Shown here one piece after another: positions 6,443 to 49,175 of a DNA stretch of 49,175 nucleotides. Made by a program: the position numbers and the translations under genes. The notes below the pieces were generated by a model, which did no database searches, was not told the origin of the DNA, and saw only the letters and a program-made list of their open reading frames with translations. The first letter of the stretch is position 1, and each line of letters starts with the position of its first letter. The DNA lies in IMG/VR virus record IMGVR_UViG_3300014208_000010, positions 1 through 49,175 of that record; one strand, 5' to 3'. The stretch is from a virus (taxonomy: Duplodnaviria > Caudoviricetes).

Positions 6443-6487
6443 TTATCCACAGTTTGATTTGCAAACATTCCACCGATAGTGTAGTAT
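6443..6487 (+). promoter_or_regulatory. DnaA box plus sigma70 promoter
   Basis: TTATCCACA 6443-6451; TTGCAA 6459-6464, 17 bp, TAGTAT 6482-6487. Confidence 0.7.
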
Positions 6488-6516
6488 AACTACATTATTA
6501 GTTAAGTGGAAATTGT

Positions 6517-8010: not shown

Positions 8011-8211
8011 ATGGACACAAAAGAATGGGGAACTATTGAGGAAGTTTTGCCAGAGCTTAACTACAAAGTAAAGCTCGCGAACGGCAGGATACTTCGTTGC
8101 TATACCGCCGGGAAACTTATTAAAAATCGTATTCGTTGCGGTATCGGCGACAGAGTAGAGGTTGTTGTACCAACCACGGGAGATATTGGGCGTGTAGTTT
8201 GGAGAAAATAA
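8011..8211 (+). CDS. infA: Translation initiation factor IF-1
   Basis: GTIEEVLP..YKVKLANG....YTAGKL.KNRIR...GDRVEV.....GRVVWR aligns by eye with bacterial IF-1 along its length. Confidence 0.92.
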   Translation: MDTKEWGTIEEVLPELNYKVKLANGRILRCYTAGKLIKNRIRCGIGDRVEVVVPTTGDIGRVVWRK

Positions 8212-8234
8212 CATTAAAAATAATTACAGAAAAT

Positions 8235-8567
8235 ATGAAAAACATTTTTGATAGTATCGTAAAATTTGGTAGAAAGTTAAAACCACAAGGACGTGGTATT
8301 GGAAACCAAGCACTACAAGCGTCCCTTTATTTTGGTATAACATTGTTTTGTGCGACAGAATTTCTTTTTATTACACAAGGCGGTTTTCTTTTTTGGGTAG
8401 CGAACATACTCTCGTGTTTCCTTTTAGTGGTAGCGTGTGAATTTATTGTTTCTTCTCTCGTAATGAACCAGCGAGCGTTGAGAGAAATCTATAAAATCAT
8501 AGACCAAGCCGGACAAATAATCTTGAAAAGAGAAGAAGAAGAAAGTAAAAAACAATCCGATGAATGA
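8235..8567 (+). CDS. Membrane protein with two TM segments
   Basis: ATG 8235; two hydrophobic stretches and a charged tail. Confidence 0.65.
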   Translation: MKNIFDSIVKFGRKLKPQGRGIGNQALQASLYFGITLFCATEFLFITQGGFLFWVANILSCFLLVVACEFIVSSLVMNQRALREIYKIIDQAGQIILKREEEESKKQSDE

Positions 8568-8934
8568 AATACCCTCACCATTTCAAAAAGAGATAAGACC
8601 GAAGACTCCAAACACCCACAGAGTATCAGCCGAAGAAGTGGAAGCATTTAAGCGTATGCTCCATCTCCAAAAACTTGTAGTCATATCAGAAAGAATGGAC
8701 GGCGGAATACAAGAACACGGAATAGTGGTAAACGGATATTCGCCGATAGAGGTTGTGGAAGTATTAAGGCACTTGCTTTCCGTACTCTCGGACGAAATGA
8801 AGCCCGGCAAGAGATTAAACAATCTCCAAAATAAAGGAGGACGCGTTGATTTTGAGAGGTTGGAAGAAGACAAAGACCCCGACACCAACGACCCAAGTCA
8901 ATTTCCGGCGGACGGAAATGATATGGAATTATAA
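8560..8934 (+). CDS. Hypothetical protein
   Basis: 124-aa ORF coupled to the upstream gene. Confidence 0.6.
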   Translation: MNEIPSPFQKEIRPKTPNTHRVSAEEVEAFKRMLHLQKLVVISERMDGGIQEHGIVVNGYSPIEVVEVLRHLLSVLSDEMKPGKRLNNLQNKGGRVDFERLEEDKDPDTNDPSQFPADGNDMEL

Positions 8935-8938
8935 AATG

Positions 8939-9013
8939 TTTCCTCTCTCGTAAAGCCCGCAGTTCAAGTCGTCTAACAGGGCGGGGCTTGAACGGGGTTT
9001 ACGGGAGAGGAGA
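8939..9013 (+). ncRNA. Long stable hairpin immediately 5' of tRNA-Tyr
   Basis: TCCTCTCTCGTAAAGCCCG pairs with CGGGGTTTACGGGAGAGGA; inner stem TTCAAGTC/GGCTTGAA. Confidence 0.5.
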
Positions 9014-9094
9014 GCGTATCTAGGACGTACGGCTCGTCGGCAGTCTGTAAAACTACTTCCATTGGACAACGTGGTTCAACTCCACGGATACGCA
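9014..9094 (+). tRNA. tRNA-Tyr(GTA), CCA not encoded
   Basis: Acceptor GCGTATC/GATACGC plus A73; D stem GACG/CGTC; anticodon loop CTGTAAA; extended variable arm; T arm CGTGG-TTCAACT-CCACG. Confidence 0.85.
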
Positions 9095-9096
9095 CT

Positions 9097-9237
9097 ATGA
9101 AAATCATAAGAAAAATCAAAGTGTGGTGGTATGGAAAATGCCACTTCTCGGGTCATAAGTGGAGAACAATTACCGATCACGAGAACTTTGACTACAAATA
9201 CCGCGCCTGTATCCGGTGCGGAACACCCAAAGAATAA
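9097..9237 (+). CDS. Small Zn-binding protein (DUF1660-like, 46 aa)
   Basis: CHFSGHKW...CIRCG. Confidence 0.6.
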   Translation: MKIIRKIKVWWYGKCHFSGHKWRTITDHENFDYKYRACIRCGTPKE

Positions 9238-9240
9238 GAA

Positions 9241-9285
9241 TTATCCACAGGTAAAACTGTGGATTTTTTGTTGACGTGGTATAAT
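9241..9285 (+). promoter_or_regulatory. DnaA box, inverted partial box and extended -10 promoter
   Basis: TTATCCACA 9241-9249; TGTGGATTT 9258-9266; TGGTATAAT 9277-9285. Confidence 0.7.
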
Positions 9286-9316
9286 TAAAGTATTATTCAT
9301 TAACCATAAAAACTAT

Positions 9317-9604
9317 ATGGTAAGCCAAGAAGAAAGTCTGCTATCCACAATCGTGGTAGCGTTAGTAGATAATCCGTCTGATGTCAAAGTAGAAAAGACA
9401 ACCGACGAAATGGGTGTATTGCTCTCAATATCACTCAACCCAGCCGATATGGGAAAAGTAATCGGGCGAGAGGGTGCGACAGCGAAAGCTATCCGCGCTA
9501 TTATGCGTGCCGTTGGAATGAACCGCCAAGCACGTATCAACGTTAAAATCGTTGAACCAGAGGGAAGACAAAAGAATTATCGCGAGGAAAAAGAAGTTTA
9601 CTAA
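9317..9604 (+). CDS. khpA: KH-domain RNA-binding protein (KhpA/YlqC family)
   Basis: LVDNPSDVKV...DMGKVIGREGATAKAIR with a GxxG loop. Confidence 0.9.
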   Translation: MVSQEESLLSTIVVALVDNPSDVKVEKTTDEMGVLLSISLNPADMGKVIGREGATAKAIRAIMRAVGMNRQARINVKIVEPEGRQKNYREEKEVY

Positions 9605-9620
9605 ATAAAATGTTATCAAA

Positions 9621-9744
9621 AATTGGGGTAATGGAGAATGAGGTAGTAATCGGCTCACTTGATGTAACCTACGGAAGCATCGGCGCTGATGTTTCGGTAG
9701 AGCAATACGAAGATGTGCCGTCCCCTATTCCCACTATCCCGGTT
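9621..9744 (+). ncRNA. Candidate rod-shaped ncRNA (about 124 nt)
   Basis: Nested complementarity: AATTGGGGTAATGGAGAAT/ATTCCCACTATCCCGGTT; CGGC/GCCG; CTAC/GTAG; GAAGCATCGG/CTGATGTTTC. Confidence 0.55.
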
Positions 9745-9760
9745 GGAGATAATTAAAAAC

Positions 9761-9979
9761 GTGGAAAACGACAAAACAATAGTGAAAGATATAGTTTGGC
9801 GTCCTATTACAGAACTATGCGCTAGCGACGAAAACAAAAACGTTCTCGTATGGGGAAAGAAGATCAAGGAGGGAAAGTTTGTACCGTGTTGGCAAGCAAC
9901 GTATTTGATGTCCGACTTGAAGTTTATGACAAGTGATATGGTGGTAGAGTATTTTGCCGAAGTCCCCGAACCTAAATAA
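9761..9979 (+). CDS. Hypothetical protein (GTG start)
   Basis: WRPITE...NVLVW...YFAEVPEP, a DUF551-like layout. Confidence 0.55.
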   Translation: MENDKTIVKDIVWRPITELCASDENKNVLVWGKKIKEGKFVPCWQATYLMSDLKFMTSDMVVEYFAEVPEPK

Positions 9980-9983
9980 GCTT

Positions 9984-10283
9984 ATGAACGACCTAAAAAA
10001 CAGAATTTCCGCTCTCAAATTTCACCAAGTAGAACCGTATTCAGATTTTTGGGAGAGGACACACACGAACGGAGATAAGATAACTACGAGCGGTTTTACG
10101 GCAAAGTTTCACAACCAAATCATTGACGAGGTGTTAAGCGTCATAAAAGAACCAAAGAGTAACGCTATTCTAAATGAGTTCGGAAGAGAAACGAGAAACG
10201 CAGTGCGAGAGGAGAGAGAAGACCGCCGGAGAGAACAACAACACACCTATTTCAAGTATGGAGGAATAAGAAAACCCTTATAA
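9984..10283 (+). CDS. Hypothetical protein
   Basis: ATG 9984, tightly packed. Confidence 0.55.
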   Translation: MNDLKNRISALKFHQVEPYSDFWERTHTNGDKITTSGFTAKFHNQIIDEVLSVIKEPKSNAILNEFGRETRNAVREEREDRRREQQHTYFKYGGIRKPL

Positions 10284-10287
10284 AATT

Positions 10288-10977
10288 ATGGCATACAAGA
10301 CATACAAAGAAATCCGAACCCACAGTGGGAAGATAGACGGAAGAACAACACGTCCTTTCAGTATTCGCAAGACAAAAGCTCTTGAAATTTATTTGGACGC
10401 AAATGGACGCAAATCAAAAGCAGTAGCGATAAGGGAAGCAGGATACCCAGAGTCAACGGCAAGACACCCAGATAAAGTCTTTTCGCGTTCAATAGAAAAG
10501 CTTATGGACGAAATGGGAGTCAACGAGAAACTTGGTATGGAGATATTACAACGAAACGCCAAAGCAAGAGTTCCGGTACATTTCACTTTCCCCCCATTCA
10601 ATTCAGCAAAGGACGAAGACGGCGGAGAGGACGGTGATGATACCGGAGAGAATATGGGCGAAAGGTTTGGAGAGCAAATGACAGATACACAGATACGAGA
10701 ATATATGGAGGGAGCAGGTTGCCGAGTAACGCGTATCGTTCACGGAGATATGGCACGACACGTTTATGGGTACGGACAAAACAATAAAGCCCAGTTGGAA
10801 ACCGCGAAGATGATATTTGAACTCACTGGCTCATTCGCCCCAAAGAAGATAGAGGGAAAGCACGACCACCGCGTTGGTATATTCTCAATGAAACAGTTGC
10901 GACAAGAAATGGAGAAAAGAAATATACAAGTAACCGACCCATTATTAGATAACGATAATCAAAATGGAAAACAATAA
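10288..10977 (+). CDS. Probable terminase small subunit
   Basis: SKAVAIREAGYPESTA HTH-like motif; lies just upstream of TerL. Confidence 0.65.
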   Translation: MAYKTYKEIRTHSGKIDGRTTRPFSIRKTKALEIYLDANGRKSKAVAIREAGYPESTARHPDKVFSRSIEKLMDEMGVNEKLGMEILQRNAKARVPVHFTFPPFNSAKDEDGGEDGDDTGENMGERFGEQMTDTQIREYMEGAGCRVTRIVHGDMARHVYGYGQNNKAQLETAKMIFELTGSFAPKKIEGKHDHRVGIFSMKQLRQEMEKRNIQVTDPLLDNDNQNGKQ

Positions 10978-11161
10978 AAATGGCGTAGAGGTAACGCCCG
11001 TTAAACAATTCAAATTCGCTATTCGCTTTCAAGACGGAGAGCGCGACGGCAAACCGCAGGACTTCGTGTATGGTTTCAACGTCGTAGCGGACGATGAAAT
11101 CACCGCAAAGGCGACAATGTTGCGACACTTGGAGGCGTGTGTTGAAGAACTGAAAAAGTAA
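10964..11161 (+). CDS. Hypothetical protein
   Basis: 65-aa ORF overlapping the upstream stop. Confidence 0.55.
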   Translation: MENNKNGVEVTPVKQFKFAIRFQDGERDGKPQDFVYGFNVVADDEITAKATMLRHLEACVEELKK

Positions 11162-11169
11162 TAAAACTA

Positions 11170-11207
11170 GCAACAGAGCCATAAAACGTGGCTCTGTATT
11201 GCATTTT
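11170..11207 (+). terminator. Hairpin / possible terminator before TerL
   Basis: CAGAGCCA-TAAAACG-TGGCTCTG followed by a T-rich stretch. Confidence 0.45.
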
Positions 11208-11224
11208 AAGCCCTCTCAAATTCT

Positions 11225-12940
11225 ATGGACGAACAACCTATCATATTAAAACACAGTATAACCGAGGATATTATGGAAGACGTGCAACACTTACAAAAGT
11301 GGGCGCGTGATGTGTTTTTGTTTGCGTCCGAAACAATGAATATGCTCCCGAGTGAACCAGTGGAGGAACTTCGCGACAGAGAAATCCCCTACACCGACCC
11401 AATGGGAAACAAACGGACAGCAAAACTATTCAGCAAGAGCGGAGAGCTATTGTGGAACGACCTCACTGTTTACGATAGGGAGATGTTTAAGAACCAAGAC
11501 CGAGCGAGCTTCAAGCAATACAACGGCACACGGTTTACGTGGCAACAAACTGTAATCCTAACCGCTTATAACCGAGCGATACGAACATTCGGGAAAGATA
11601 GCTTTGACGACATAGTGCGGTGGATCAGCGTACGTTCGGGACACGGAATAGGAAAGACGGCAGATATGAGCGTAATCGCTATTCACTTCCTATGGTGCTT
11701 CCCGGGTGCGCAGATAGGTATGACCGCGAACAGCGAGCAACAGGTGGAGGACATCTTTATGAAAGAGTTTTATGTATGGGCGAGGAAACTTCCTTTGTTC
11801 ATTCAGAACTGTATCGTTCAGACTTCCGACCACATTCAGATAGAAGACGATGAAGACTGGTTTTTAAGGGCGCAGGTTGCACGACCAGAAAAGCCCGAGG
11901 CATTGGCAGGACTCCACGGTAAATACGTTCTTATTCTCGTAGATGAGGCGTCCGGTGTGGCAGACAAGGTGTATGAGGTTATGAAAGGAGCGTTGACAGG
12001 AGATAACTATGTCGTGGTGTACTTCTCAAATCCAACACGAAACGAGGGAGAGTTCTTTGAGAGCCATAAAGACGGTAGCACATATACCAAACTGCATTTC
12101 AACAGCCGACACAGCCCGATAGTCCGCGACGGTTATGTGGACACAATGGAAAATCGCTATCCGCCGAACGGTACAGAGCATAGTGATGAAGTGAAGATAC
12201 GTGTAGACGGAGAATTTGCCGGAGTGAACGAAATGGACGACAAGGGCTGGATACCTCTATTTGCCAACGTGGTGATACATTTTGAACCAGAGCAGGGGCA
12301 AATCATAAACAGAGGAATAATCGCCGTAGACCCGAGCGGAAGTGGCAAAGACCATACGTCCGTGGGTATCAGGGACAATATCTATCTCAAAGAAGTGCTA
12401 AATGAAAACACAAGCAACGAAAAGGACTTGGCACGAAAGGTAGAAACAGTCCGGGACGCTTATAATTGCCAAAGCGCCGACATAGGCATTGACGCGTTCG
12501 GAGTGGGTGCGAAACTCGTGGCGAATATCAATACCAAGATAGGCGAAAGTGTAAACGCATTACTCACTGATAAACCACGACCCGGCACAGAGGACAGGTT
12601 TGTAACATTCAAAGACGAAATGGCGTGGGCGTTCAGAGAGTGGGTGTGTAATGGTGGTATAATTATTACCAATAACCCCGAAGCGTGGCTCAAAGAAATG
12701 AGAGCCGTGAAATTCAAACGCGTGGGAAAAGGACTCATTCACTTAATGGACAAGCCGACATTCAAGAAGATAAACAGTTTCAGCCCGGATAGATTTGATA
12801 TGGGGACGCTCACATTCTTTAAGGCGGACGCGACACGCCCGGTGATACTCACAAAGAACCAACTTGAAGCCGAGGAGAATAGGAAGTTTATTGAAAGCAC
12901 GAAGTTATCCACAGAAAACCACAACCTATCATCTATGTAA
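11225..12940 (+). CDS. terL: Terminase large subunit
   Basis: WQQ; RSGHGIGKT (Walker A); ILVDEASGV (Walker B); SNPTR; nuclease AVDPSGSGKD and SPDRFD. Confidence 0.95.
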   Translation: MDEQPIILKHSITEDIMEDVQHLQKWARDVFLFASETMNMLPSEPVEELRDREIPYTDPMGNKRTAKLFSKSGELLWNDLTVYDREMFKNQDRASFKQYNGTRFTWQQTVILTAYNRAIRTFGKDSFDDIVRWISVRSGHGIGKTADMSVIAIHFLWCFPGAQIGMTANSEQQVEDIFMKEFYVWARKLPLFIQNCIVQTSDHIQIEDDEDWFLRAQVARPEKPEALAGLHGKYVLILVDEASGVADKVYEVMKGALTGDNYVVVYFSNPTRNEGEFFESHKDGSTYTKLHFNSRHSPIVRDGYVDTMENRYPPNGTEHSDEVKIRVDGEFAGVNEMDDKGWIPLFANVVIHFEPEQGQIINRGIIAVDPSGSGKDHTSVGIRDNIYLKEVLNENTSNEKDLARKVETVRDAYNCQSADIGIDAFGVGAKLVANINTKIGESVNALLTDKPRPGTEDRFVTFKDEMAWAFREWVCNGGIIITNNPEAWLKEMRAVKFKRVGKGLIHLMDKPTFKKINSFSPDRFDMGTLTFFKADATRPVILTKNQLEAEENRKFIESTKLSTENHNLSSM

Positions 12941-12960
12941 AATCAAACGTGTGTTATAAT
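12905..12960 (+). promoter_or_regulatory. DnaA box plus extended -10 promoter
   Basis: TTATCCACA 12905-12913; TGTTATAAT 12952-12960. Confidence 0.6.
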
Positions 12961-12967
12961 TAAATAA

Positions 12968-13047
12968 ACTCACCCATTCGTAGGGACATTCAAGGGCAGT
13001 GCGTTTAACCAAATTCATTGCCGGGGAACGAAGACGATAAAGTGAGT
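12968..13047 (+). ncRNA. Candidate structured RNA 5' of tRNA-Met
   Basis: Closing stem ACTCAC/GTGAGT; inner stem GGCAGTG/CATTGCC; TTCGT/ACGAA complementarity. Confidence 0.4.
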
Positions 13048-13052
13048 GATAC

Positions 13053-13125
13053 CGCGCGGTGGTCTAGTCTGGTAGGACATCTGGCTCATAACCAGAGAGC
13101 ATAAGTTCAAATCTTATCCGCGCAA
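13053..13125 (+). tRNA. tRNA-Met(CAT), initiator (fMet)-like; CCA not encoded
   Basis: Acceptor CGCGCGG/CCGCGCA with C1:A72 mismatch; anticodon arm TCTGG-CTCATAA-CCAGA; T arm ATAAG-TTCAAAT-CTTAT. Confidence 0.9.
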
Positions 13126-13135
13126 CAATAAAATT

Positions 13136-15118
13136 ATGGAAGAAAAAAAACAAGAGGAAGTAAAAAAGAAATTGCACGCGTCCGTAATGGAGGCGTATGA
13201 CAATAACGAGGACGAAGCGAAACACGCTATTGCGGTTGTTGCTCAAATAAACAAAGACTTGGAGGGCAGAGAGAAAGCGTCCATTGTCCACAATGGTATC
13301 TCTTATTCCAAGGCATACGAATACAATGTCCGAAAGGGTATCAACTATGCACCGCCAAGAGAGCCGGGGAAAGAGAGAGAGGTTTCAATGGGGCTTGTAC
13401 ACGAAAAGATAATCGGATTTTGCGCGTTCTTCTTGAAAATGGTTTATAAGCGACAGGTAAAATGCTATGGCGAAGACGCAAAGGTTATCAAAGGACTTGG
13501 CGACATTTACGACCTTGCTATTGAACACTCGTACAGACTGGAACAGTTTATTAAAAAACTCGCTCTCATATACTGGGAGTTATTTTGCCAAGGCGACACG
13601 TTCATTCAAGAAGTGTGGGACGTTCGCAACATTCAAAACCGTATCGCAATGAAAGACGGACAGGAAATAACACCCGACCAAATGGACTACACGTATGAAT
13701 TTATGGACGGTTTAACCTATAAGGACGGCGAAATGGTACAGGTGAGGAAAGCAATAAGTAAAATCCTTGACGGACGAACTGTCATTTTGGGTAGTGAGGA
13801 GATAGAAGAAATCCAAGACCAACCGCGAATAACCATTGAAGAAGTAATCAGTACCCAAGACGCCAAAGAGATATACGGCTCACTCAAACGTTTCAAGTTC
13901 GTACCAGAGGAGAAAGAGAATATCGCGAATTGTCTAAACGGTGAAAAGGTAACATTGTTTGACGTTGACCGACTCGCAGACCCAAAGGCACAGAAGATAC
14001 TCCATATCGTGTGGGATAAAGAACACAACCTTTTTAATATCCTTTTGAACGGGATAATGCTTTTGCCAAGTAAAACAACCTTTAATCTATTCTATCCACG
14101 TGGGAACTATCCTATCACCAAAGTATCGGGAGAGAGAATGACTGGCTCGGCACGTTCACGCAGTGTCCCGGCAAAGACAAAGTTTAACGCAGACTTTGTG
14201 GACTGGGCGTTGAAAGGACTTGCGGAGAAATTTGAACAAGGTATTGACCCGGCATTATTGGTACACGGAAAATACACTTTGAGCAAAGACCTATTCAGAG
14301 CCGGACAAAGGACACACGGTATCAACAAAACGGACTATGAGAAAGCCGACCCGGACAATGCAGGTATCACAACATCAGAGTTTTCATTCGTTACAATGTT
14401 GAAATCTATCGTGGAGGCACAGACATTGAGCAAAACGACTTCCGGTGAGGTATCAAGCGAAACAGCAACCGCCGTGAATGAGGCACAAGCAAGCCAAGCA
14501 GAGAAACTCGGGTATCTTTTGGACGGAGTAGTGAATGGATTTATGGATATGGCATTAAGACGAGCTGAAACTTTTGAGAGTAAATACACTATCAAGGAAC
14601 GCGAAACTATCGTTGACGGAAAGAAAATCGCGGTGTATCAAAACTTCTCTGTTTCCATTGACGGCACAGACCACAATGTTTCCTTTGATGAGGGTTTGCG
14701 AAACGAGGACGTAGACCAACAAGCAATGAAAGACAAAATGTTTCAGACTTCTTTCAAGGAAACCAAAGAGGGTAATCCTACAAAATACTATCTCGCCGAC
14801 CCGAATTTTATACGACAAGGAAAGCATAGTATTCACATTGTAATCAAGCCGGAACGCGTGAAAGACACTATGACCCAAATTATGCAAATGCGCGACGAGT
14901 TCTCTTTCTTGAAAGATATGTGGGGAAATGGCATAGATATGGCAGAGTTGAAAAATGAGTACATAAAAATAACTGGAAGACCCGACAAGATATTCCTCCC
15001 GGCGGAAACAATGCGACTCAATAACGAACTGGAACAGATGAACGCAAACGCGCCGACTCCCAACGATATGGGGACATTCAACAAGCCAACAATTAAAAAA
15101 GCGTTAAACACAAAATAA
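13136..15118 (+). CDS. Portal protein
   Basis: 660 aa, directly after TerL; ETATAV..AQ segment like podovirus portals (position plus inference). Confidence 0.8.
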   Translation: MEEKKQEEVKKKLHASVMEAYDNNEDEAKHAIAVVAQINKDLEGREKASIVHNGISYSKAYEYNVRKGINYAPPREPGKEREVSMGLVHEKIIGFCAFFLKMVYKRQVKCYGEDAKVIKGLGDIYDLAIEHSYRLEQFIKKLALIYWELFCQGDTFIQEVWDVRNIQNRIAMKDGQEITPDQMDYTYEFMDGLTYKDGEMVQVRKAISKILDGRTVILGSEEIEEIQDQPRITIEEVISTQDAKEIYGSLKRFKFVPEEKENIANCLNGEKVTLFDVDRLADPKAQKILHIVWDKEHNLFNILLNGIMLLPSKTTFNLFYPRGNYPITKVSGERMTGSARSRSVPAKTKFNADFVDWALKGLAEKFEQGIDPALLVHGKYTLSKDLFRAGQRTHGINKTDYEKADPDNAGITTSEFSFVTMLKSIVEAQTLSKTTSGEVSSETATAVNEAQASQAEKLGYLLDGVVNGFMDMALRRAETFESKYTIKERETIVDGKKIAVYQNFSVSIDGTDHNVSFDEGLRNEDVDQQAMKDKMFQTSFKETKEGNPTKYYLADPNFIRQGKHSIHIVIKPERVKDTMTQIMQMRDEFSFLKDMWGNGIDMAELKNEYIKITGRPDKIFLPAETMRLNNELEQMNANAPTPNDMGTFNKPTIKKALNTK

Positions 15119-19340: not shown

Positions 19341-19397
19341 ATGAGATTTGACTAACGACCATTAGTCATTTCCATTATTCACTTTAACAAAAATTTT

Positions 19398-30801: not shown

Positions 30802-33800
30802 ATGCCAATCAAATGGGACAACGCTAGTACGCCGGTAGTGCCAACCTCAACAAATCCTACTAAAAAAAGTGGGATTGTTTGGGACGACACTCCAAAACCT
30901 GTTCAAGCAGTAACGCCTCCACAACCGGGAATTTTGGAAAAAATATCGGGTGGGTATAAAGCATACGCTGACGAAACCCGGCGTCTTGCTGGTGATATTT
31001 TTGCTGGGTCGGCTCAAATGGCGTCCTCGGTTGCGTCCGGTCTTGAATGGCTCGGTTTTAATCCCGGTGGAGTAGTAGAAAAAACTCGCGTTACTCTTGA
31101 TGAAATGGCAAAAGTAAATGCCCCTGTTGATCCGACCTTTGTAGATAATCTCGCTATGGGAGTTGGTTCATTCGGTGCGTTCTTCGTTCCGGGTGTTGGT
31201 ATTGCCCGAACAACCCTTGCTCTCACAAAAGTTTCTCCGGCTATCGCAATGCTTTTCGGAAACTCTGCGTCCACAGCTCTTGAAGCAATGTCCGAAGCTG
31301 GTTCAGTATATCAGTCAAACCTTGACCAAAGTGGAGATGTTGAATTGGCAAATAAAATGGCGACAAGGACTTTTTGGGGAAATGCCGTACTCATTGGTAT
31401 TACAAACCGTTTCGGACTTTTCAACGAAAACTTAAAAGGCGCTCTTAAAAAAGCTATCTTCTCTGCCCCTGTGGAGGGTTTCCAAGAAGCCGTACAACAA
31501 GTAATTTCAAACCTCGCAACAGACAGACCGATTGATGAGGGCGTAAAAGATAGTTTTTTAATCGGTGCTATCCTTGGAGCAGGTGGTGGAGCATTGGAAC
31601 AAGTTTTTGCAAAACCTCCACTCAAACCGTCTGAAACAGACGCGGGAAAACGCGCGAAAGAAATCATTGACGCTGGCGGTACTCCAAATGAAGCAACGCT
31701 TGAACTTTCTCAAACGCTTACACCAGAACAAGCGAAGAACATTGTCAATAGCGTTGTGAGGGATAATCTCACTCCCGAAGATGTAAATTTGACCCAAAAC
31801 GCCCCTATAACCACTCCGACAGCAGAAACAGTCGTCCCAAGCGTGGAAACAACGCCAGAAGCAGGAAAACAGGCAAAAACCACCCTCCAAGACGTGTTCG
31901 CAAAGGTAGATAATACGATATTAAACCAAACCCCGGCAAATCTTCAAGAAAGCTTTAATAAACTTGATGAGGAGGTGAATAAAAGGGCAGAAAAAGCAAA
32001 AGCGGAAATGAAACTCGCTGACGAGAATTTGAAAAAAGCAAAACCAAACACCCAAGAGAAAAAAGACGCTAAATTGAATTTGGAAAAAGCGAAGACAAAA
32101 ATTCGCGAAGCAAATGGCTATGTCCAAAAAACAATGGAGGCACACGCGGAGGCGTTTCGTAAATTCTTTTCCTCACACGTAAAAACTTTGAACAAAGACC
32201 TCACTGACGCGCAAGTGAATGAAATAGTGAGTAAACTTTCTGACAAAATCACGAATGTCGCGACATACGAAAGTGTGAAAAACGATAATATGGCGAAAGT
32301 TGTTAAGACCTTAGTAGATGAAATCAATCCTCCGGCGAAAACGACTACTAAAAAAGCAAAAGTTAGTACAAAAGTGGTAGAGAAAAAAGGAAAAGAGCCA
32401 GAATTTAAGGTCGGAGATGTCCTTGATCCCCAAGGGAAAACAAATATGGTTGGAAAAGTAACCATAAGCAAAATTGAGGGAAACACAATAAAATTCACGG
32501 ACGAAAACGGTACTGAATTTTCCGGTATGCAAAAGTCCTTGGTAAAAACTCTTGTAAAAGAGGGGAGTTGGAAAAAAGGCGAAGCAAAAAAAGAAGCTCC
32601 CGAAGAAAAAGAAATTGTTAGACAGGTTGTTAAAAATGGTGAATACCCAAAAACTCCACGCGAATTTGCTAAAAAATATATGCGCGGATACGTTCTTCGT
32701 GGTAATACTTTGGCGTATTTATCAGAGGGTTACGGAGGAGAAACTGGCGGTGGATATTCTGTCGGTATAGGTGGATATGTGAATGGAAAAAGTATCGGAA
32801 ACAAAAAAATCGCCGTTACTCAATTTGCGGGCAAAGATGTCGCGGAAATCTTTTCATTAAAAGAACTCTATGACGAAATCTTGAAAGAAAAAACCACACA
32901 AAAAGAAGAAGTAAAAAAGGTTATTGAAAAAAAAGGAAAAGCGTCCATTAAAGAAATTGCCAAAGAAACTGGTATCGTTGAACCGAATATCAGACGTATT
33001 CTTGGTGTCGGAGCAAAGGACGGAACGTTTGAGCGTATCGCCGAGGGAGTATACACTATCACGAAAGACGGAGAAAAAATGGCGTACATTATTCCCGGGG
33101 ACGCACTGGAAGTAATGCCGAAACTTGTCGCAGAGGGTTTTAAGTCGGATATGGTTTTCTTGGATATTCCTTATAAAACACAAGCCGTAACAGGAGGAAA
33201 TCGTGGAGTAAAGTATGACCTTATCAGTGTTGAACAATTTGGAAAAGTCCTTGATAACGTTTCGGAAATTTTAAGGACAGAAAAAAGTCCGATAATCCAT
33301 ATGTTCAGTCAAGCCACAAGTGGTTTGAAAGAAATGCAGAAATACAATGACCTCTTTGCTGAAAAAGGTTTTGTTGCCGTGGGTAGAGGAGGACTGACAA
33401 AATTACAACAAGACGGAATTACCGAAGTTCGGAATATGAGAGGTGATGTAATGAAGCCCGAGGGTATTCTCGTTCTCACAAAAAGCGGAGAATTGAATAA
33501 AGAATTAAAAAATCTCAATTTCAAACTCGTTCGCCCAAAAGGATACGCTACGGAAAAACCAGCACAGATGATCTCTGACCTTATTAAAATGACCACAGAG
33601 GAGGGAGATGTTGTCTTTGACCCATTCGCCGGATCGGGTGTTGTTCCGCACGAAGCAGTAAAAGCCGGACGAAAAGCCGTTGCTATTGAGAAAAAAACAG
33701 AACAAGCAAAGAAAATCGCGGAGAGAGTACAAGGAAACGATATTTTAGAAAATCTGAAAGACACATTCGGAAACGATACCGAACAAACTTTGAAAGAATT

Positions 33801-36800
33801 AAGAGAAAAAGACTATGTTCTTGAATTGAAAAAGACTTCAAGTATAAATGATGATATGTGGGCGGAACATATCTCTGAACCCTCACGAAAAAAGATTGAT
33901 AAAATTAAAGAGGAAATTCTTGCAGGAAAAGAAATGCCACCGATTTTACTAAATACTGTCGGTGGAATGTATGACGGACATCACAGGTTGCAAGCATTTA
34001 AGGAATTAGGGGTTAAGGAAATAAAAACCCTTACCGAATTAAAGAAAACAAAGGGTGTTGTTCCTACTGGAAAAATTATTGACAAGTTGCTAACAAAAAT
34101 AGAGAAAACATTTTATCGTGGTGGAGGTATGGGGTCTATGCCGAAGACGGGAACAGCCCAAGACGTATTAGATTATGAGAGAGTAGAACTCGGGAATACT
34201 GATGTTGTCGCAGAAAAAGGAGTTGACCTGTCAAAAATCCCGGCGAAAAATCTTGTTTGGTTGACCGAAACGAAAGAGTCCGCAAAAGATTATGGAAAAG
34301 TTGAAGAAGTTATTTTGAATGAGGGAGAATATCAGATTGTCGCGCGAGATAGCGACGGTGGTGTTCTTATTGACAAATTACTAATTAAAGAGGATAATAA
34401 AACAAATGGAAAAGATACTACAAATAGCCCCACTGGGGGAAATAACGTTGACGAAAACGGAGTACCCGAACCTTTACCCGTGGGCGGAAAAGAACCCGGA
34501 GGGGCTGGTGTCGCAGATACTGGGAATGGCAAGGGCGTCCGGGAACAAAAACCCGCAAAGCGTAGCAATGATATTGGAAAACGACTTGGCACACGATTAA
34601 CAAATGAAGAAATTGACGCGGAAGTGTCAAAAATAGCGGAAATTGGTACTAACGGAGAAGTTAGTATCACTGGTGAAATTACTGACGAAATTTTGGAAAT
34701 CGCAAACCAATACAGACCGGGCGGAGAAACAAAATCGGGACGCGGAATACTTGATGAGTATTACACCGCTTCCGAAGTCGTTGACCTCACAAAATCTCTT
34801 TTAGACTTCCCTGTGGAAAATATGAAAGTCCTTGAACCCTCTGTTGGCTCGGGGAATTTTCTCTATGCGCTTCCCGAAACAGGGACTCACGATATTCGCT
34901 CGTATGAAATAAACCCGATCACCGCAAAGATAGCAAAAATCTTCCACAATGACGCAAGAGTTTTTAACACTTCTTTTGAAACAAACTTTGTTGACGAAAG
35001 AGGAAACAAAAAATCCTTTGACACTGATTATGACTTGGTGATAGGAAATCCACCTTACGGAGAACACAGAGGGCAGTATCTCGGACTCGGAGAAGAAAAA
35101 GGAATAAAAAAATACGAAGACTATTTCGTAAAACGCGGATTGGACGTTCTCAAAGAGGGCGGAACACTTGCATTTGTACTTCCATCGTCCTTTATGGATA
35201 GAGCCACGGTAAAAAATGCCGTACTAAAAAACGCTTTCCGACTCCCGGAGGGTGCTTTCTCTGGTACGAGTATCGGAACGGATATAGTAATCCTCACCAA
35301 AAAAACCGGGGCAGAAACAAACCTTACCAAACACTTTGAAGAAAACCCCTCAACCGTTCTCGGGGAAGAAAAGACGCGCAAAAATCGTTTTGGAAAAACC
35401 GAAACGTTTGTATCAGGAACTCTTGAAGACGCAATCACTAATTTCTATCTCGCAAAAGACACTCTTGAAGCCGTTAAAATTCTTACCGATAATAAAATTC
35501 CTGTAACAGAGGAAAGTATTGCCGAACAAGAAAAATCCGTGGAAGAAGCCGGGGAGAAAGGTGCGGAAAAACTCGCCAAAGAGGAAACACACGCCAAAAA
35601 AGTTGGTAAAAAAACCATTGAGAAAAAGATAACAAAAGTTTCAACAACCAAAGGCAAGACCGTTTCACTTTCAGAACAATTTGTAAATTTAACCGAAGAA
35701 GAAACAACGGACTGGCTCGCGACTGGCTCGGACGGAGCGTTAAAAGACGGCTCTGATACAAGCAGAGCAAACTTCTATGACGGAAAATACTACATAGATT
35801 TTAATTACCTCCAAGGGGATATTTACGAAAAACTTGACCAACTAGAAAAAGACAAAGCGACCATTGGCGACAACCAATATAATACTCAAAAAGCAAAACT
35901 TCTTTCTCTCATTCCATCAAAAGAGAGCATAGGAGATATTAAACTTTCCCCAAATATCGGGTTTGTAAAGAACCTAAAAACAAATGGAGAAGACACACTC
36001 CAATCCGATTTTTTGAAGTGGCTCGGAACTGTTCCGCGTAATTCATTCGGAGATAGTAGTACGTGGGAGATCAGAGCATACACCAAAGACGAAAGCGTAA
36101 CTGGAAGTGATAAAGACCTCAATGAACGTGTCCGTGTACGACGCAAAAAAATGGCAGACTCTCTCTTTGAAAAATACCTTAATTCAGAACTTACTGACTA
36201 TCAAAAATCACTCGTTGCCGAAGAATACAATAAAACATTCAATTTCTATCACTCACCAGACTATTCAAAAGTACCTATCTTCGCTGATGTGTTTTCAGAG
36301 TATAAGAACGGTCAACCTCTCACCCTCAATGACGCACAAAGAGCTGGTATAGGGCGACTCGTAAATATGGGTATCGGAATTATCGCTCACGAAGTAGGTT
36401 TTGGAAAAACACTCACAGGTATTCTAGCGACCTACGAAACAATGCAAAGAGGTTGGGCGCAAAAACCTCTTATCGTTTGCCCAAGCGATAACGTTTATAA
36501 TCAGTGGAAGAACGATATTGAAACACTTATTCCAAATGCAAAATTAAACTTGCTTGGAAATCTTGGAGCTTCTTTCAAAGGCGACCTTTCCTCTCTGAAA
36601 ATTGAACCGGGGACATTCACTCTCGTAACCTATGAGGGATTAAAAAAACTCTCTTTCAAAAACGAAACGTACAAAAAAATGTCCGAAAAGTTTTCGTATG
36701 TTTCAGACGACCTTACCAAACATAAGACCGCACGGGACGCAGAAAAGGCAAAAGCAAAGGGTGAAGAAACTTCCGGGACAATGAAAAAAGGGACTCGTGC

Positions 36801-39800
36801 TGACCTATTCTTTGAAGACTTGGGCTTTGACTTAATGACATTTGACGAAATCCATAACGCAAACCATATCGTATCAAAAGTGAAACTTGCCAAAGGGCAA
36901 GCGTCCGAATACTCACGCTTTGGATTAAGAGCTTCCGACCTTGGAATGAAGACGTGGCTTGCTTCTCAATATATTCAAGACAAAACAAACGGAAGAAACG
37001 TCTATCTTCTTTCCGCGACTCCGTTTACAAATCACCCATTGGAATACTATTCTATTTTCTCTCTCGTGGCAGATAAGTCCCTCAAAAAAATGGGACTCTT
37101 GAACGTAAACGACTTCTTCGGTACGTTTATGGACGCAGAACACGACTACGAATTTAAGGCGGACGGAACATATCAGAAAAAAACCGACATAAGAAAATTC
37201 AAAAACTATCGCCAATTTAGTAAATTGCGTGATACTTATATTGACATTAAACAAGACAGCCCGGAAATTGTACGTCCTACTCGCGTACAAAAGACTTACG
37301 AAATTCCACAGAATGACCTCACAAAAGAATTGAACGCAAAAGCACAAGAGATATTTAAGGAAAACGAAAAAGAAGCAGGAAAAGGAGCAAAGACTCTCCG
37401 TGCTATTACAGAACTCCGTAAAATATCTTTCAGTCCTTACGTTTCAAAGTTTGGATCAGAACTCCCCACGCCAAGCAATAAAATGTTTGTTGAAAATTCC
37501 CCTAAACTCGCTACGGTAATGGGAATAATCAAGCAGAATAAAGCGGATAAACCCGAAGCCGGGCAAATTATCTATTCCGAAGTAGGGGTGGAGTCATTTC
37601 CTATACTCAAAGAGTATTTAGTAAAAGAAATCGGGTATAAGGCGAACGAAGTTGAAATCATTTCCGGCGGAACTCCAAAACCTCGTCGCTTGGATATTCA
37701 GGAAAAATACAACGCCGGAGATGTGAAAATAATTATCGGATCGGAAGCTATCTCGGAGGGTATGAACCTCCAAAGAAATACTACCGATATGCACTTACTA
37801 TCCCTCCCGTGGAACTTTACCGCTCTCCGACAAGTAATCGGGCGCGGTTGGAGGCAGGGGAATATGTGGGCGAATGTCCGTATCAATCAGTATTTCATTC
37901 GTAACAGTGTTGACGTTTTCCTTTCTCAAAAATTGGATAACAAACAGAAAAGATACGAACAAAGTATCGCCTCAAACGCAAACGAAGTAGACGTTGGAGA
38001 TGTTTCCTATAACGATATGAAGTTTGATTTAGTACAAGACCCAAAGGAACGCGCCAAACTTGAAATCAGTGCGGAAAAAGACCGAGTAGAAAATGAAATC
38101 AAACAAGCGAAAGCCGAACTCTCTTTTGCTACCAGAAAATTGGATAAAATTCAAGAAATGGACGACAAGTTAAAAACAGAAAAAGCACAACTTGTCGCGG
38201 AACTCGCCGGGGACAAAAATGAGTATTGGTTGGAAAGACACGAACAGAATATCAAAAAATATACAGATGAAAGAATTATTGAACTTGAAAATCTTTCAAA
38301 AAAAGGAATAAATGTAAAAACACTTCTTGAAACCAAGGAAAAAGGAGAACTTGAAATTACAAAACTTGAAGAAAAACTCAAAACTATTGAAACCTCTTTT
38401 GACGAAAGAGTAAAAACCCTTACGGAACAAATGCCACCAGAGGAGAACTTCTCTCACGATATGATCGCTCAATTTATGGCAGACCGCGCGGAAGAAAACA
38501 AAACATTCTATACCAAAAAAATAGAGGAGAAGAAAGAAACTATCGCTGTTGCCCCACGCACAAAAGAGGAGAAAAAAGTTGGTAAAAAGGTTGCGGTAAC
38601 AAAAAAGACAGCCCCACGAGTAGAACGCACGGGTACGCAAGACAAACGCGTGCTTGATATTCTTGCAAAATCAGATATTACTGTTGAACAGAAAGTGAAC
38701 GAAATCTTGAACGAAAAACAGACCGGAAAGGAATTTAAGGATACAGGTGTTCGTGTTGCCGGGTCAAAAAAAGAAAGAGCCACGATAAATACCGTCCTTG
38801 AAAATGCTGACATCGCCACCATCGCCGAAATGGTAAAATCTCTCGGTGCTGATACTATCGCGGAAACGTTGCATAAAGACGAAATTTTGGAGAAAGCGAT
38901 AAAACCAGACGTGGAAGCCGACAAGAAAGCTGGTGTTCCGGCTTATATCACTGGGTGGAAAATTAAAGTCCTCAACTCTATCGGACGAACACCGACAATC
39001 GTAACCAAAAGAACCAAATATAATTCTCGTCAAGAAGTTCCGACTGACTCTCTCGTTCCGTTTCTTACGAACTATCCAAAATACTTGCAGATGTTCACCA
39101 AAGACCTTGCTGATATAAAGAATATGGAGGGTGTGAACGCTTTTGAAGCAAAATATCGCTGGAACTTTGTAAACAACGAAAGCCAGTCAATGCTCGTAAA
39201 CATTGGTGTACTTGGAAAAGCCATAAAAAAGGTAATTCAAGACGGTACAAACATCGGACGTGCTATCGCAAACGTGCAAGACCAGTTAGGAATTATCGCG
39301 AACCCGGGAAGAAAATCAGAATACTCCGAACGCTATTACGGTTTGGATTATTCCTCTACCGGATATTATGCCACAAAAGAGGAAGCTATCGCAAAAACCG
39401 AAGAATACAAAGAAGACCGTATTAAAGACCTCAACGATACTCTTGACCTTTACAACAACAATTACGATCACTGGTTGCCAAAGAAAAAAGCCATTGAACA
39501 AAAAAGCGACGACTCACACGCAAACTTTAAGCCATTGGATAAGGTAGAAAGAAGCGAACCAGACATTGCGGACGAAAAAATAAACCCGGAAACCTTGATG
39601 AAAGAAAACGGATTTAGATCGGTACAGCTCGGTAACTATATGGACGACGCAACCGCAAAAGAACACCTCCGCTATACTATCGGGGCGGTACAAGATATGT
39701 CCAAATTACTTGGGGTGGACTTCCCGAAACTCATAAACAAAAAAGGACTCTCTATCGCTTTCGGCGCTCGCGGAGGTGGACGTTTCAACGCTCACTATGA

Positions 39801-42800
39801 ACCCTCACACAATATAATCAATCTCACCAAAGGCAGAGGGGACGGCTCATTCTTCCACGAGTTTATTCATTTCCTTGACGAAAAATCAAACTCCGCAGGG
39901 TATCGCGGGACTCTCTCATCAAAAAAGGATAGGTGGTATCGTTCCAACCCTCTTGATATGGACTCGGCAGAACTTATGTCCGCCCTCACAGGAAAACGTA
40001 TCAACAAAGTAAAAGAATTTACCCCAAGAGAAGACCCCTATATTTTAGACCGACCCGAAGACCCTGTTATGGTGATGAGAGCGAATGGAAAAACTTTTGA
40101 AGAAGCTATCGCGTGGGCGAAAGGTGCGACCTATCCGGGAAGTAAATTTCAAGACATTGCTGATGTTTACCGTAAAAACGTAAAAGAAGAAGCAAAAGTC
40201 TATAATGAAAAAACCGCATTTTATGACGGCGCTGTTTTACTTGGTGGTGGTTCGCAGGAGTCGTATTGGTCAAGACCTCACGAACTTCTTGCCCGGGCTG
40301 GACAGGCGTATATTGAAGACAAAATGATAGAAGCCGGAATGAAAAACAATTACCTCACCCGAACAACCTTATCAGAGGGAGAAACTTCATACGACAAATT
40401 CATTAAAAACGCATACCCCCAAGGTGATGAACGAAAGATTTTCAAAAATCTTTTTGACAAAGTTTTTGAAGACATTGCAAAGGACTATCCTTTCAAAGAT
40501 TATAACATTGGGGACGCACGCTTTAAGTTTGTTGATAAAGTCCTTGATGTTATCGCTCCTTACCAAACAGAAAAAGCCACTGTTGGCGTGAATGACGCTA
40601 TGTGGTACTTGAATGACGCAAGAAAACGCCTTGGGATAGACTTTGACACGTACCTTGTATCCTCTATTTTGGGAACGAAGACCGATATGACAACCAAAAT
40701 GAGTAAAGAAATTGAAGCTTGGGGAGTAACTTACGACAATTCCATTGCTCTCGTTCGCCAGATGGCAACCTACACAGCACCACACGAACTCGGACATCTT
40801 GTACTCGCCAACATTGAAAAAATTGGAGTATTCAAACGCGCAGGACTTACTCGCGAAAAACTTTTGAAAGCACAGGCGGAAAAAATGGGGATAGTGTGGA
40901 ACAAGCAAACTGACAAAGAAATTGAAGAACAGATAATGCTGAACTTTGAGAAATATCTTGACAATAAATATAATCAGGGTGGAATTATCAAAAAGTATTT
41001 CAACCTCTTGAAAATTCAGTTGGTAAAATTTGCCAAAGCGATAATTGGAACAAAGGGCGACATCGTGAAAGATTTTTACGACCTACTTGATGAGGGACGA
41101 ACGAATGACGAAGAAATGGAACGCATTGAGAACTCCGGTATTATTGAAGCGTTTATGTCCGAAAATGACACAGACGTTTTGGAGGGCGACAAGGTGGAAG
41201 AATTTGCGTCAATGAAATTTAAGGAAAAACCGAAAGACGCGCGACTCCAAAAAATCTCTATCAAATATAATGACTTGGTAAAAAAACAAGTTGAAATTGA
41301 ACAGGGTATAGAAACGTGGAAAAAAGACCTTGAAATAAATATCGCAAAAGCCGAACAGACCGCAGAGGTAGTAAACGAAGCCCCGGAGAATGTAAAAGAC
41401 CTTTCTCGCTTTACGAACAGAAAAGCACCGCCAGTCGGACAACTTACCGACAGAGGTGAAGCAATGGTTGAAGAATTGGGATTTGCGAATAAAGAACTCG
41501 CACAAGCAGAAATACACGATTATCTCCAAACAAAAAACGAACTCGTTACCACAAGAGCAAAACTCCGTGAACTTCGCCGTGCAATTTCAGAAGCACGGAC
41601 GACTAAAAAGGCAGACAAGACAGTACTCCGCGACCTTGAAAGACGTTTGAAACTCCGAAAAAGATACTTGGAACAGAAAGATATTGCGGTTAAAATCGGT
41701 GTGAACAAAGGAAAGAAACAACAAATGCGAATGATATGGAAACGCGGACGTGTACTTTCCGCAATGCAAGACGCATTTACTCTTGGGGATAAGAAAGCAA
41801 AAGAGATTATCGGCGGAAGAAAAATCCACTTAATGAGCGAATGGGAATTTAATAATTTCCTTTCAGAATTTGCGTCCAAAGCTGAAATCATTTCAAATAC
41901 TCTATCCGCACAAGACGAACTGAAATCTTATATCGCAGAAATGGAATTTAAGAAAGAAGACAATCTCCGAAAAGCACTCGGACTTCCAACCAACGAAAAA
42001 ATGAACGAAAGCCAAGCCAAGCAATATCTTGACGCACTTTCAAAGTACCAATTCGGCGATACATTCCTCACAAAAAGAGAACTTGAAACCGTACACCGGA
42101 CAGACTGGGGAAAAATGGAAACCGAAAGGGAACTTTTGGCAAAAATGAAAACCCATATCGGAGTAGGAAAAGAAGAAATGATGACACTGGAAGCCCCACA
42201 AGATAAAGGTAAATATACTTCGTGGATACGACTTGCAAGACAGCACCCATTCTATAATTGGTTAATTCAAAAAAGAATTATTGCAAAAATTCAAGCCGAA
42301 AGAGAATTTTTCGCCATTGAAAAAGAAGTAAACAAACTCGCTACTTCCGCGCGAAATTCACGCACTCGCGGTGTTGGGGACGTACTCGTACCGACTGACG
42401 ACATTGTATTTGGATATTTGGAAGCCGAAGACAAGGAAGCATACGCCACCAAGGAGAAAATGACCCAAGCCGAAAAAGACTTTGCCTCATATCTTATTAC
42501 TCAATACTTCAATGCTTACGAATATCTGAACTCTGAATACGGAATGAAAGGACGCAAAAATTATATGGTACACACCCGACGTGATTTTTGGGAGGCACTG
42601 AAAGAGGGAGGCGTAATGTCTGCTCTCCGGGAAACAATGACCGCGCAAAAAGAGGAAGAAGCCGGATTTAAGATTTTGGACGAACAGACAGGGGACGTAC
42701 TCGCGTTTGAAAAGTTCTTTGGCAATATGATGCACCGAACAGGGGGTATCGTACCATCAAAGAACGTCGCAAAGGCGTCCTTACAGTACTTTAAGGCACT

Positions 42801-45799: not shown

Positions 45800-45883
45800 T
45801 TATCCACCATTTACCCGACATCAGGAAAATGGTATCATAGAACTTTAAGGTGGATACACCTATTATTAACTAACGACAAAATT

Positions 45884-48968: not shown

Positions 48969-49175
48969 ATGAAAACAGTGGAAAAAGAGCCAAACGCTCT
49001 ACCGGGAACACCGGAGAAAAAGGGGAAAGAGGTAGTGAAAATATCGCACGCGAATATCTTTGAGGCACTGTCGGCGTTTCAAGGAGAACTCACGACTATT
49101 GAGCAAAGCAAGAGTGTGAAGTTCAAAACGAAAGACGGACGCGAAGTTGATTTTAAGTACGCGCCTCTCTCGGAA
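48969..49175 (+). CDS. ERF-family ssDNA annealing protein, N-terminal part (continues across the circular join to 732; about 271 aa in total)
   Basis: ATG at 48969 gives MKTVEKEP...NIFEALSAFQGEL...KYAPLSE, in frame with 1..732; promoter upstream. Confidence 0.85.
   Translation, partial: MKTVEKEPNALPGTPEKKGKEVVKISHANIFEALSAFQGELTTIEQSKSVKFKTKDGREVDFKYAPLSE
49053..49175. repeat. Terminal direct repeat, right copy
   Basis: Identical to 1-123. Confidence 0.97.

Follow-up and report, generated by a model that had tools for sequence, protein, structure and literature searches.

The virus record IMGVR_UViG_3300014208_000010 (Caudoviricetes), a 49,175-nucleotide stretch that was analysed whole and is called the window here, encodes a homologue of translation initiation factor 1 (IF-1), the KH-domain protein KhpA and two tRNAs within 5.1 kb. 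The original prediction took these four genes for a compact translation-initiation kit by which the phage may favour its own mRNAs that lack Shine-Dalgarno (SD) motifs or leaders. All four genes are confirmed as real, but the broader idea that they form a compact initiation kit fails. Our cautious preference is for a different reading, in which IF-1, KhpA and the two tRNAs are separately acquired helpers in an accessory zone around the terminase genes, with IF-1 likely topping up host initiation late in infection. The four genes are as follows.

8011..8211, plus strand: IF-1 (InfA) homologue, 66 amino acids (PF01176, fold, tree)
9014-9095, plus strand: tRNA-Tyr(GTA), degenerate (ARAGORN only)
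9317..9604, plus strand: KhpA KH-domain protein, 95 amino acids, GXXG intact (PF13083, tree)
13053-13125, plus strand: tRNA-Met(CAT), likely initiator (ARAGORN; Rfam, 63.7 bits)

Related phages carry these parts in different mixes. Among nine relatives found through the terminase large subunit (TerL; 58-71% identity, L006 and L010 being short), IF-1 lies between the helicase and the terminase in one close group (L002, L003, L004, L005 and L009), while L007 and L008 cover the helicase-terminase region and have no IF-1 there. KhpA is in none of the nine, nor in any of the 13 IF-1 or terminase-relative records, and only L008 among the nine has a tRNA-like element. A single-sequence search with KhpA returned no viral relatives and an alignment-based search was needed, which yielded 33 viral loci from 27 lineages. 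IF-1 is absent from all 33 of these whole KhpA-bearing viral records, the nine that are at least 90% complete included, and the IF-1 profile was also negative on four terminase relatives beside them; as a positive control, the same profile recovered IF-1 in 5/5 host genomes and in two virus records. Subsets of the parts do recur. The complete phage G353 (TerL 63%, found by a capsid-like search) carries KhpA at the matching place before the terminase; its tRNA-Met and tRNA-Tyr genes adjoin each other some 15 kb from khpA, and it has no IF-1. G355 (96% complete) and G354 (31%) have none of the four parts. In the 36-kb group around L011, which holds the IF-1s closest to that of the window, an initiator-like tRNA-Met lies about 1.5-1.9 kb upstream of IF-1 in all four covering loci, and no KhpA was found in the records searched. 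IF-1 accompanies a tRNA-Ile(TAT) in L001 (complete, 37 kb), and the KhpA lineage of L025, L027 and L042 has tRNA-Met without IF-1. Absences of tRNAs are soft, because Rfam missed ARAGORN tRNA-Mets in G044 and G018 and default ARAGORN missed the L008 element. Pairs and one trio thus recur, and IF-1 and KhpA stand together in no other record examined; with the parts in such different mixes, separate acquisition is likelier than a single kit. A lack of co-occurrence in relatives, which the original prediction had named as counting against it, is therefore largely what is observed.

The trees of the two proteins also differ. The IF-1 tree (51 sequences and 69 columns, with weak deep nodes; FastTree was also run with more unplaced matches) joins the window IF-1 to those of the 36-kb group, whose TerL is unrelated to that of the window, in a clade of phage sequences only (bootstrap 99), and puts the IF-1s of L001-L003 in a separate group (support 88). 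L002 and L003, although relatives of the window (TerL 70%), therefore have an IF-1 of another subfamily at the corresponding place. Since the window clade stands apart from L001-L003, the tree points to at least two captures of IF-1 and to exchange between phage families. What remains phage-specific is this phage-only clade, which spans phages of 35-50 kb. As the original prediction had supposed in looking to the candidate phyla radiation (CPR), the window IF-1 nests among IF-1s of the CPR class Paceibacteria (bootstrap 94, thin outgroup), and its KhpA is about 60% identical to Patescibacteria KhpA. Within the KhpA tree it groups with L032 (support 0.965), and it is 45% identical to the KhpA of G353.

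The IF-1 clade has been maintained. In the nine of 29 phage IF-1 pairs with measurable synonymous divergence, the ratio of nonsynonymous to synonymous rates (dN/dS) is 0.09-0.25 (0.105 for the window against L195); in the other 20 pairs synonymous sites are saturated, with protein identity still at 50-80%. These values indicate purifying selection in the clade. An alignment of 21 IF-1 sequences proved too heterogeneous to search for loci, and the survey of short-loop IF-1s described below rests on smaller alignments and is incomplete. Three of eight metagenome matches were dropped: L198 and L199, longer proteins with an N-terminus resembling the oligonucleotide-binding (OB) fold that are not IF-1, and L197, which is the window's own record. 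In the 36-kb group, IF-1 is always followed by a very basic open reading frame (ORF) of 57-76 amino acids with no Pfam family (L011, 10209-10439; homologues in L023, L192, L193, L195 and L196), which is a candidate ribosome- or RNA-binding partner; none lies beside the window IF-1.

That the window protein belongs to the IF-1 family is well supported. It scores 36.5 bits against PF01176, above the gathering cut-off of 30.2, and 41.7 against TIGR00008, below the equivalog cut-off of 61.15, and is therefore treated as a diverged homologue and not as an equivalog. The AlphaFold model (predicted local distance difference test 93.5) has the five-strand OB fold of the IF-1 type, and the best Foldseek matches in the PDB are IF-1s, with a template-modelling (TM) score of 0.97 and a root-mean-square deviation of 0.8 to 30S-bound E. 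coli IF1. In E. coli numbering, Pro18, Tyr35, Gly38, Lys39, Arg46, Arg66 and Arg70 are kept and position 23 is basic. A non-functional S1 fold, which the original prediction had considered, is contradicted by the fold, the kept contact residues and the purifying selection in the clade; because IF-1 is not a dead fold, its action on host ribosomes stays plausible.

IF1 reaches the 530 loop through residues 35, 38, 39 and 66 and helix 44 (h44) through 41, 46 and 64, while residues 60, 61 and 64 touch uS12 and Arg64 also touches C1411 (10.1101/2023.10.27.564398). Arg64 is described as disrupting h44 pairing, and Arg70, numbered Arg69 in that source, as essential for 30S binding (PMC4611024). In the window IF-1 the 530-loop residues and Arg70 are all present, whereas the uS12/h44 residues Arg41, Tyr60, Asp61 and Arg64 are all replaced (by Ile, Thr, Thr and Ile), as is Asn19 (by Glu). 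The comparison set of 35 host-class IF-1s comprises five named Paceibacteria and 30 top scorers of a phage-weighted profile, and is biased accordingly. Its members have Arg41 in 34, Lys or Arg at position 64 in all 35, Asp61 in 26 and Tyr60 in 11. Ile64 recurs in 14 of 18 short-loop relatives (sequences without known context), and Arg66 and Arg70 are invariant in all 18. The L001-L003 IF-1s have Thr or Ser at position 64, and those of T4-like phages (L012-L017, which have the canonical loop and serve for contrast only) keep a basic residue. The claim that the IF-1 loop is shortened stands in part: one residue is missing relative to E. coli, directly before a proline, although the octamers quoted for it (TPYDLSKG and VPTTGDIG) are equal in length. 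The short loop is a host trait and not a phage one, being shared by 23 of the 35 host-class IF-1s, including all five named Paceibacteria; nine have a long loop, and three that were unparsed are long by eye.

KhpA is also a genuine family member, with 68.6 bits against PF13083 (gathering score 32.1), a single KH domain and an intact GXXG motif. Its scores of 67.1 and 65.2 against the NCBIfam equivalog models fall below 106 (host CPR proteins were not scored on these). No match to KhpB was found among the 48 window ORFs scanned. Where KhpA has been characterized, it binds many RNAs post-transcriptionally and affects cell division, and the available text of that work describes no initiation role (PMC11261784). 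On that description it is a post-transcriptional RNA-binding protein and not an initiation factor. In hosts, khpA is preceded by an rpsP-like gene and followed by a trmD-like one (by eye), neighbours that the window khpA lacks. In L025 (1075-3703), as in L027, L044 and L045, genes for GroES and a GroEL-family chaperonin lie directly upstream of khpA.

The tRNA-Met is likely an initiator, with some departures from the usual form. Initiator tRNAs are marked by G2:C71, C3:G70, A73 and three G-C pairs in the anticodon stem. The window tRNA has the first three and the C1xA72 mismatch on which the original prediction relied, an unpaired 1x72 being the primary formylation determinant (PMC4611024). 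It departs in having U11:A24 in place of the secondary determinant A11:U24, which occurs in 11/11 host initiator-type tRNAs. Its anticodon stem has two basal G-C pairs and not three; 7/11 of these host tRNAs likewise have two, and 2/11 have an identical anticodon arm (the hosts having been picked by likeness to the query). The D-arm resembles that of host tRNA-Glu/Gln. The tRNA-Tyr is less secure. The elements that define tRNA-Tyr identity are the GTA anticodon, G1:C72, A73 and a long variable arm. The window gene carries them all, together with a C28-A42 mismatch and no encoded CCA. We call it degenerate because ARAGORN reports it while the Rfam tRNA model (RF00005) gives no match at the gathering score or even at E<=5. 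Its homologue in G353 scores 33 bits in Rfam and shares its D-loop.

Both tRNA genes are preceded by structured RNA, neither element having an Rfam family (chance matches only) or a homologue in the fetched loci.

8939..9013, plus strand: long hairpin (about 33 bp) immediately before the first base of tRNA-Tyr (-46.2 kcal/mol, z -7.2)
12968..13047, plus strand: structured leader before tRNA-Met (z -3.0)

Hairpins of unrelated sequence also lie directly before tRNA-Tyr (z -1.8) and tRNA-Met in G353 (L225, 5124-5190, minus strand); such hairpins may be processing signals. At the other end, the 3′ end of a tRNA or tRNA-like RNA falls 1-2 nucleotides before the next ATG in the window (9095-9097), L001 (10938-10940) and L008 (8735-8821, where the ATG is that of the terminase), compared with gaps of 10-30 nucleotides for other phage tRNAs. 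In these three phages, tRNA 3′ processing could leave near-leaderless mRNAs. The L008 element itself (8735-8820) is a tRNA-like RNA with an extended anticodon arm (Rfam, 50.1 bits), directly upstream of the terminase gene, and the L001 tRNA-Ile (10865-10938) has the rare TAT anticodon.

The leaders of the window's genes give no ground for selective translation. Counting from the first ATG as the start, SD motifs precede 3 of 42 window genes (7%), which is at chance level (6% when shuffled) and agrees with the SD-less leaders that had been described; the leader quoted as an example is found at 19387. The hosts are alike, with 8% of 408 genes in host loci (shuffled 6%), against 15 of 32 in E. 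coli (47%; shuffled 10%), a control added because T4-like loci were a weak one (16% vs 7% shuffled). Relatives without IF-1 have SD motifs at 12% of 51 genes and KhpA phages at 6% of 340. Leaderless genes are not enriched either: a strict -10 box 3-9 nucleotides before the ATG occurs at 1 of 42 window genes, compared with 8% in hosts. The IF-1 gene, which is outside the 42-gene set, has TATAAT 4 nucleotides upstream. An anti-SD motif is reported in only 48% of Parcubacteria (Tsurumaki et al., PMC9297842). Since host genes are equally SD-less, leaders offer no basis for a selectivity of IF-1 towards phage mRNAs.

The locus is also less compact than had been proposed. The four genes occupy 644 of 5115 bases (13%), with about nine unrelated ORFs, a putative small terminase and TerL between them.

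10288..10977, plus strand: putative terminase small subunit (position only, no family match)
11225..12940, plus strand: terminase large subunit, between KhpA and tRNA-Met (PHROG 2, E 5.6e-30)
13136..15118, plus strand: putative portal, 10 nucleotides after the tRNA-Met discriminator (position and size; no family match)
6443..6490, plus strand: predicted promoter 1, DnaA-box-like 9-mer and -10-like hexamer, heading a small-gene unit that would contain IF-1 and tRNA-Tyr
9241..9285, plus strand: terminator-like stem (9243-9264) overlapping predicted promoter 2 (9-mer and extended -10), before khpA
12905..12960, plus strand: predicted promoter 3, 9-mer and extended -10, heading tRNA-Met and the head genes
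6443, 9241, 12905, 18236, 46951 and 48894, plus strand: 9-mer sites by sequence match; the 8-mer also at 45800

These promoters and the terminator are consensus matches, and with them the four genes are predicted to fall into three transcription units, one with IF-1 and tRNA-Tyr, one with KhpA and one with tRNA-Met. The DnaA-box-like 9-mer occurs six times on the plus strand and never on the minus strand (0.2 expected), and its 8-mer mostly lies 35-50 nucleotides before a -10-like hexamer (7/8). In related phages the 8-mer occurs 20 times in 86 kb, nine of them with a -10, and it is less frequent in host loci; it may be a promoter element of CPR phages or reflect control by DnaA. A scan for generic promoters did little better than chance (18 vs 13.7).

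The window is a single contig free of Ns, and its opening bases are repeated at 49052; the record is classed as a complete virus with direct terminal repeats. It also encodes an Erf recombinase, an SNF2-type helicase, NinG and a 4510-residue DarB-like polyvalent protein (30802-44334; two methylase domains, a helicase and LPD1 domains) that takes up 27% of the genome. The labels of small terminase, portal and major capsid follow from position and conservation, none having a family match. The host is likely a member of the Paceibacteria, because the best named KhpA relatives (Taylorbacteria, Vogelbacteria, Paceibacterota and other Patescibacteria) and the nesting of IF-1 both point to that class. 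Genetic recoding need not be invoked, as the reading frames of the key genes stay open under table 11. Replacement of a lost host IF-1 is rejected, since 292 of 301 genomes of the class keep one IF-1 match of their own.

Compared with bacterial IF-1 (InfA; PF01176, TIGR00008; PDB 1HR0, 9FCO), of which the Paceibacteria proteins are nearest, the window protein is alike in its OB fold, kept residues and short loop, and differs in its TIGR00008 score, in the changes at residues 19, 41, 60, 61 and 64, and in its setting: host infA lies upstream of ribosomal-protein genes (labels by eye), phage IF-1 among phage genes. IF1 genes have been reported for huge phages, with the suggestion that their products redirect translation in the host (Al-Shayeb et al. 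2020, PMC7162821, whose supplementary tables may hold further cases). The window phage is 49 kb, not >200 kb, its IF-1 lies in a separate clade of CPR origin, and no synthetases, IF3 or ribosomal proteins were found in it. Among 50,697 GenBank phage records we found 24 IF-1 matches, Lak phages and phage Phosso included, 17 of them >400 kb and seven being unannotated, unchecked matches of 3-153 kb. The available text of a jumbo-phage review does not mention IF1 (PMC7824862), and our literature search listed no study devoted to IF-1 or KhpA in small phages of CPR bacteria. A parallel in layout is phage bS21, whose small initiation-related gene lies by terminase and capsid genes and is proposed to act late (Chen et al. 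2022, PMC9723584); it is a different protein in a different host group, and its expression has been shown, whereas that of IF-1 is predicted. KhpA (YlqC/UPF0109) shares its domain layout with the host protein and differs in lying outside the host operon with its own predicted promoter. As for the tRNAs, phage tRNAs can offset host tRNA depletion, and tRNA-Tyr and initiator tRNA are both nuclease targets (PMC10264068, PMC11555353); tRNA-Tyr is a retron target, and the T5 tRNA-Tyr acts against retron-Eco7 (PMC11555353). The window tRNA-Met differs from such cases in that its anticodon arm is host-like and only the D-arm unusual, and a corresponding defence in the CPR host is not in evidence.

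Under the reading of separate helpers, IF-1 would dock in the A site of the host 30S subunit through its intact 530-loop face (Tyr35, Gly38, Lys39 and Arg66) together with Pro18, Arg46 and Arg70. With Arg41, Tyr60, Asp61 and Arg64 replaced, its hold on uS12 and h44 would be weaker. Late in infection it would boost initiation on every non-SD message alike, so that the phage would benefit, if at all, through the abundance of its mRNAs, not through recognition of their leaders. The late timing is suggested by the position of IF-1, at most about 3.3 kb upstream of a terminase gene in all four small-phage IF-1 lineages, as with the late-expressed bS21 (PMC9723584). The tRNAs would likely back-fill the host fMet and Tyr pools, and KhpA would likely act after transcription, either by chaperoning RNA or by partnering or competing with KH proteins of the host. 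Several points weigh against this reading. IF-1 and an initiator-like tRNA-Met recur as a pair in every covered locus of the L011 group, and three of the four parts, among them the same pair of tRNA species, are also present in G353. Of the near-complete records, 2/3 with IF-1 and 1/11 without it have tRNA-Met (p=0.09, or 0.29 minus the window), and many records are fragments. The anticodon loop of tRNA-Met equals that of the host, so nuclease evasion by loop mutation is unsupported, and where VapC-LT2 targets tRNA-fMet, phages are reported to tend to avoid this tRNA (PMC10264068). The host assignment, promoters and timing are predictions, and the clade-wide change from Arg/Lys64 to Ile is odd for a plain supplement.

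That change is central to an alternative we regard as possible but unlikely, in which IF-1 is a retuned or dominant variant that fills the A site with less h44 distortion and makes the initiation checkpoint less strict, to the benefit of fast or leaderless starts or of tRNA variants like the phage's own. The universally basic residue 64 of the 35 hosts, set against Ile in the window and most short-loop relatives and Thr or Ser in L001-L003, would fit such a role, as would the T4-like phages, which keep the basic residue. The described effects of Arg64 on h44 pairing (PMC4611024) and its contacts with C1411 and uS12 (10.1101/2023.10.27.564398) point the same way, and IF1 stimulates leaderless translation in vitro (PMC9031893). 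However, no leader class separates phage from host mRNAs, leaderless candidates amount to one gene in 42, and the relatives without IF-1 (L007/L008) have the same leaders. We are similarly doubtful of a more specific proposal, that small CPR phages captured host IF-1 at least twice and lost basic residue 64 each time, giving a dedicated checkpoint-changing IF-1, perhaps tuned to the phage's chimeric initiator tRNA.

The remaining explanations are weaker still. RNA chaperone activity and antitermination are known side activities of IF-1, and the window protein could work off the ribosome as a cold-shock-like chaperone or antiterminator for late phage RNA, as its OB fold, net charge of +5, lost uS12 contacts and position just upstream of terminase operons containing hairpins would allow. 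We consider this rather improbable, given that the ribosome-specific residues are kept, with Arg66 and Arg70 invariant across the short-loop relatives and Arg70 (as Arg69) reported essential for 30S binding (PMC4611024). A single selected module that redirects initiation to phage mRNAs would account for the 5.1-kb spacing, the recurring pairs and trio and the weak trend of tRNA-Met with IF-1, but is very improbable in view of the separate ancestries, the three predicted units, the lack of any other record with both IF-1 and KhpA, the distance of the G353 tRNAs from khpA, and a KhpA description that includes no initiation role in its available text (PMC11261784). Least credible is recently captured host DNA in decay. 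The degenerate tRNA-Tyr and the IF-1 score below the TIGR00008 cut-off would suit neutral cargo, which is largely refuted for IF-1 by its phage-only clade, with protein identity held at synonymous saturation, and the host neighbours of both khpA and infA are absent.

These results add CPR-bacterial phages of 35-50 kb to the giant phages for which IF-1 was reported, and they identify KhpA as common cargo of such phages, with 27 lineages. The setting of these phage IF-1s is CPR ribosomes, which often lack the anti-SD tail (PMC9297842). As natural, selected variants without a host-conserved ribosome contact, they are probes of the roles of Arg64 and Arg41 in initiation; and if the proposal of a dedicated, captured IF-1 were true, a phage IF-1 would change the initiation checkpoint on CPR ribosomes that have no anti-SD.

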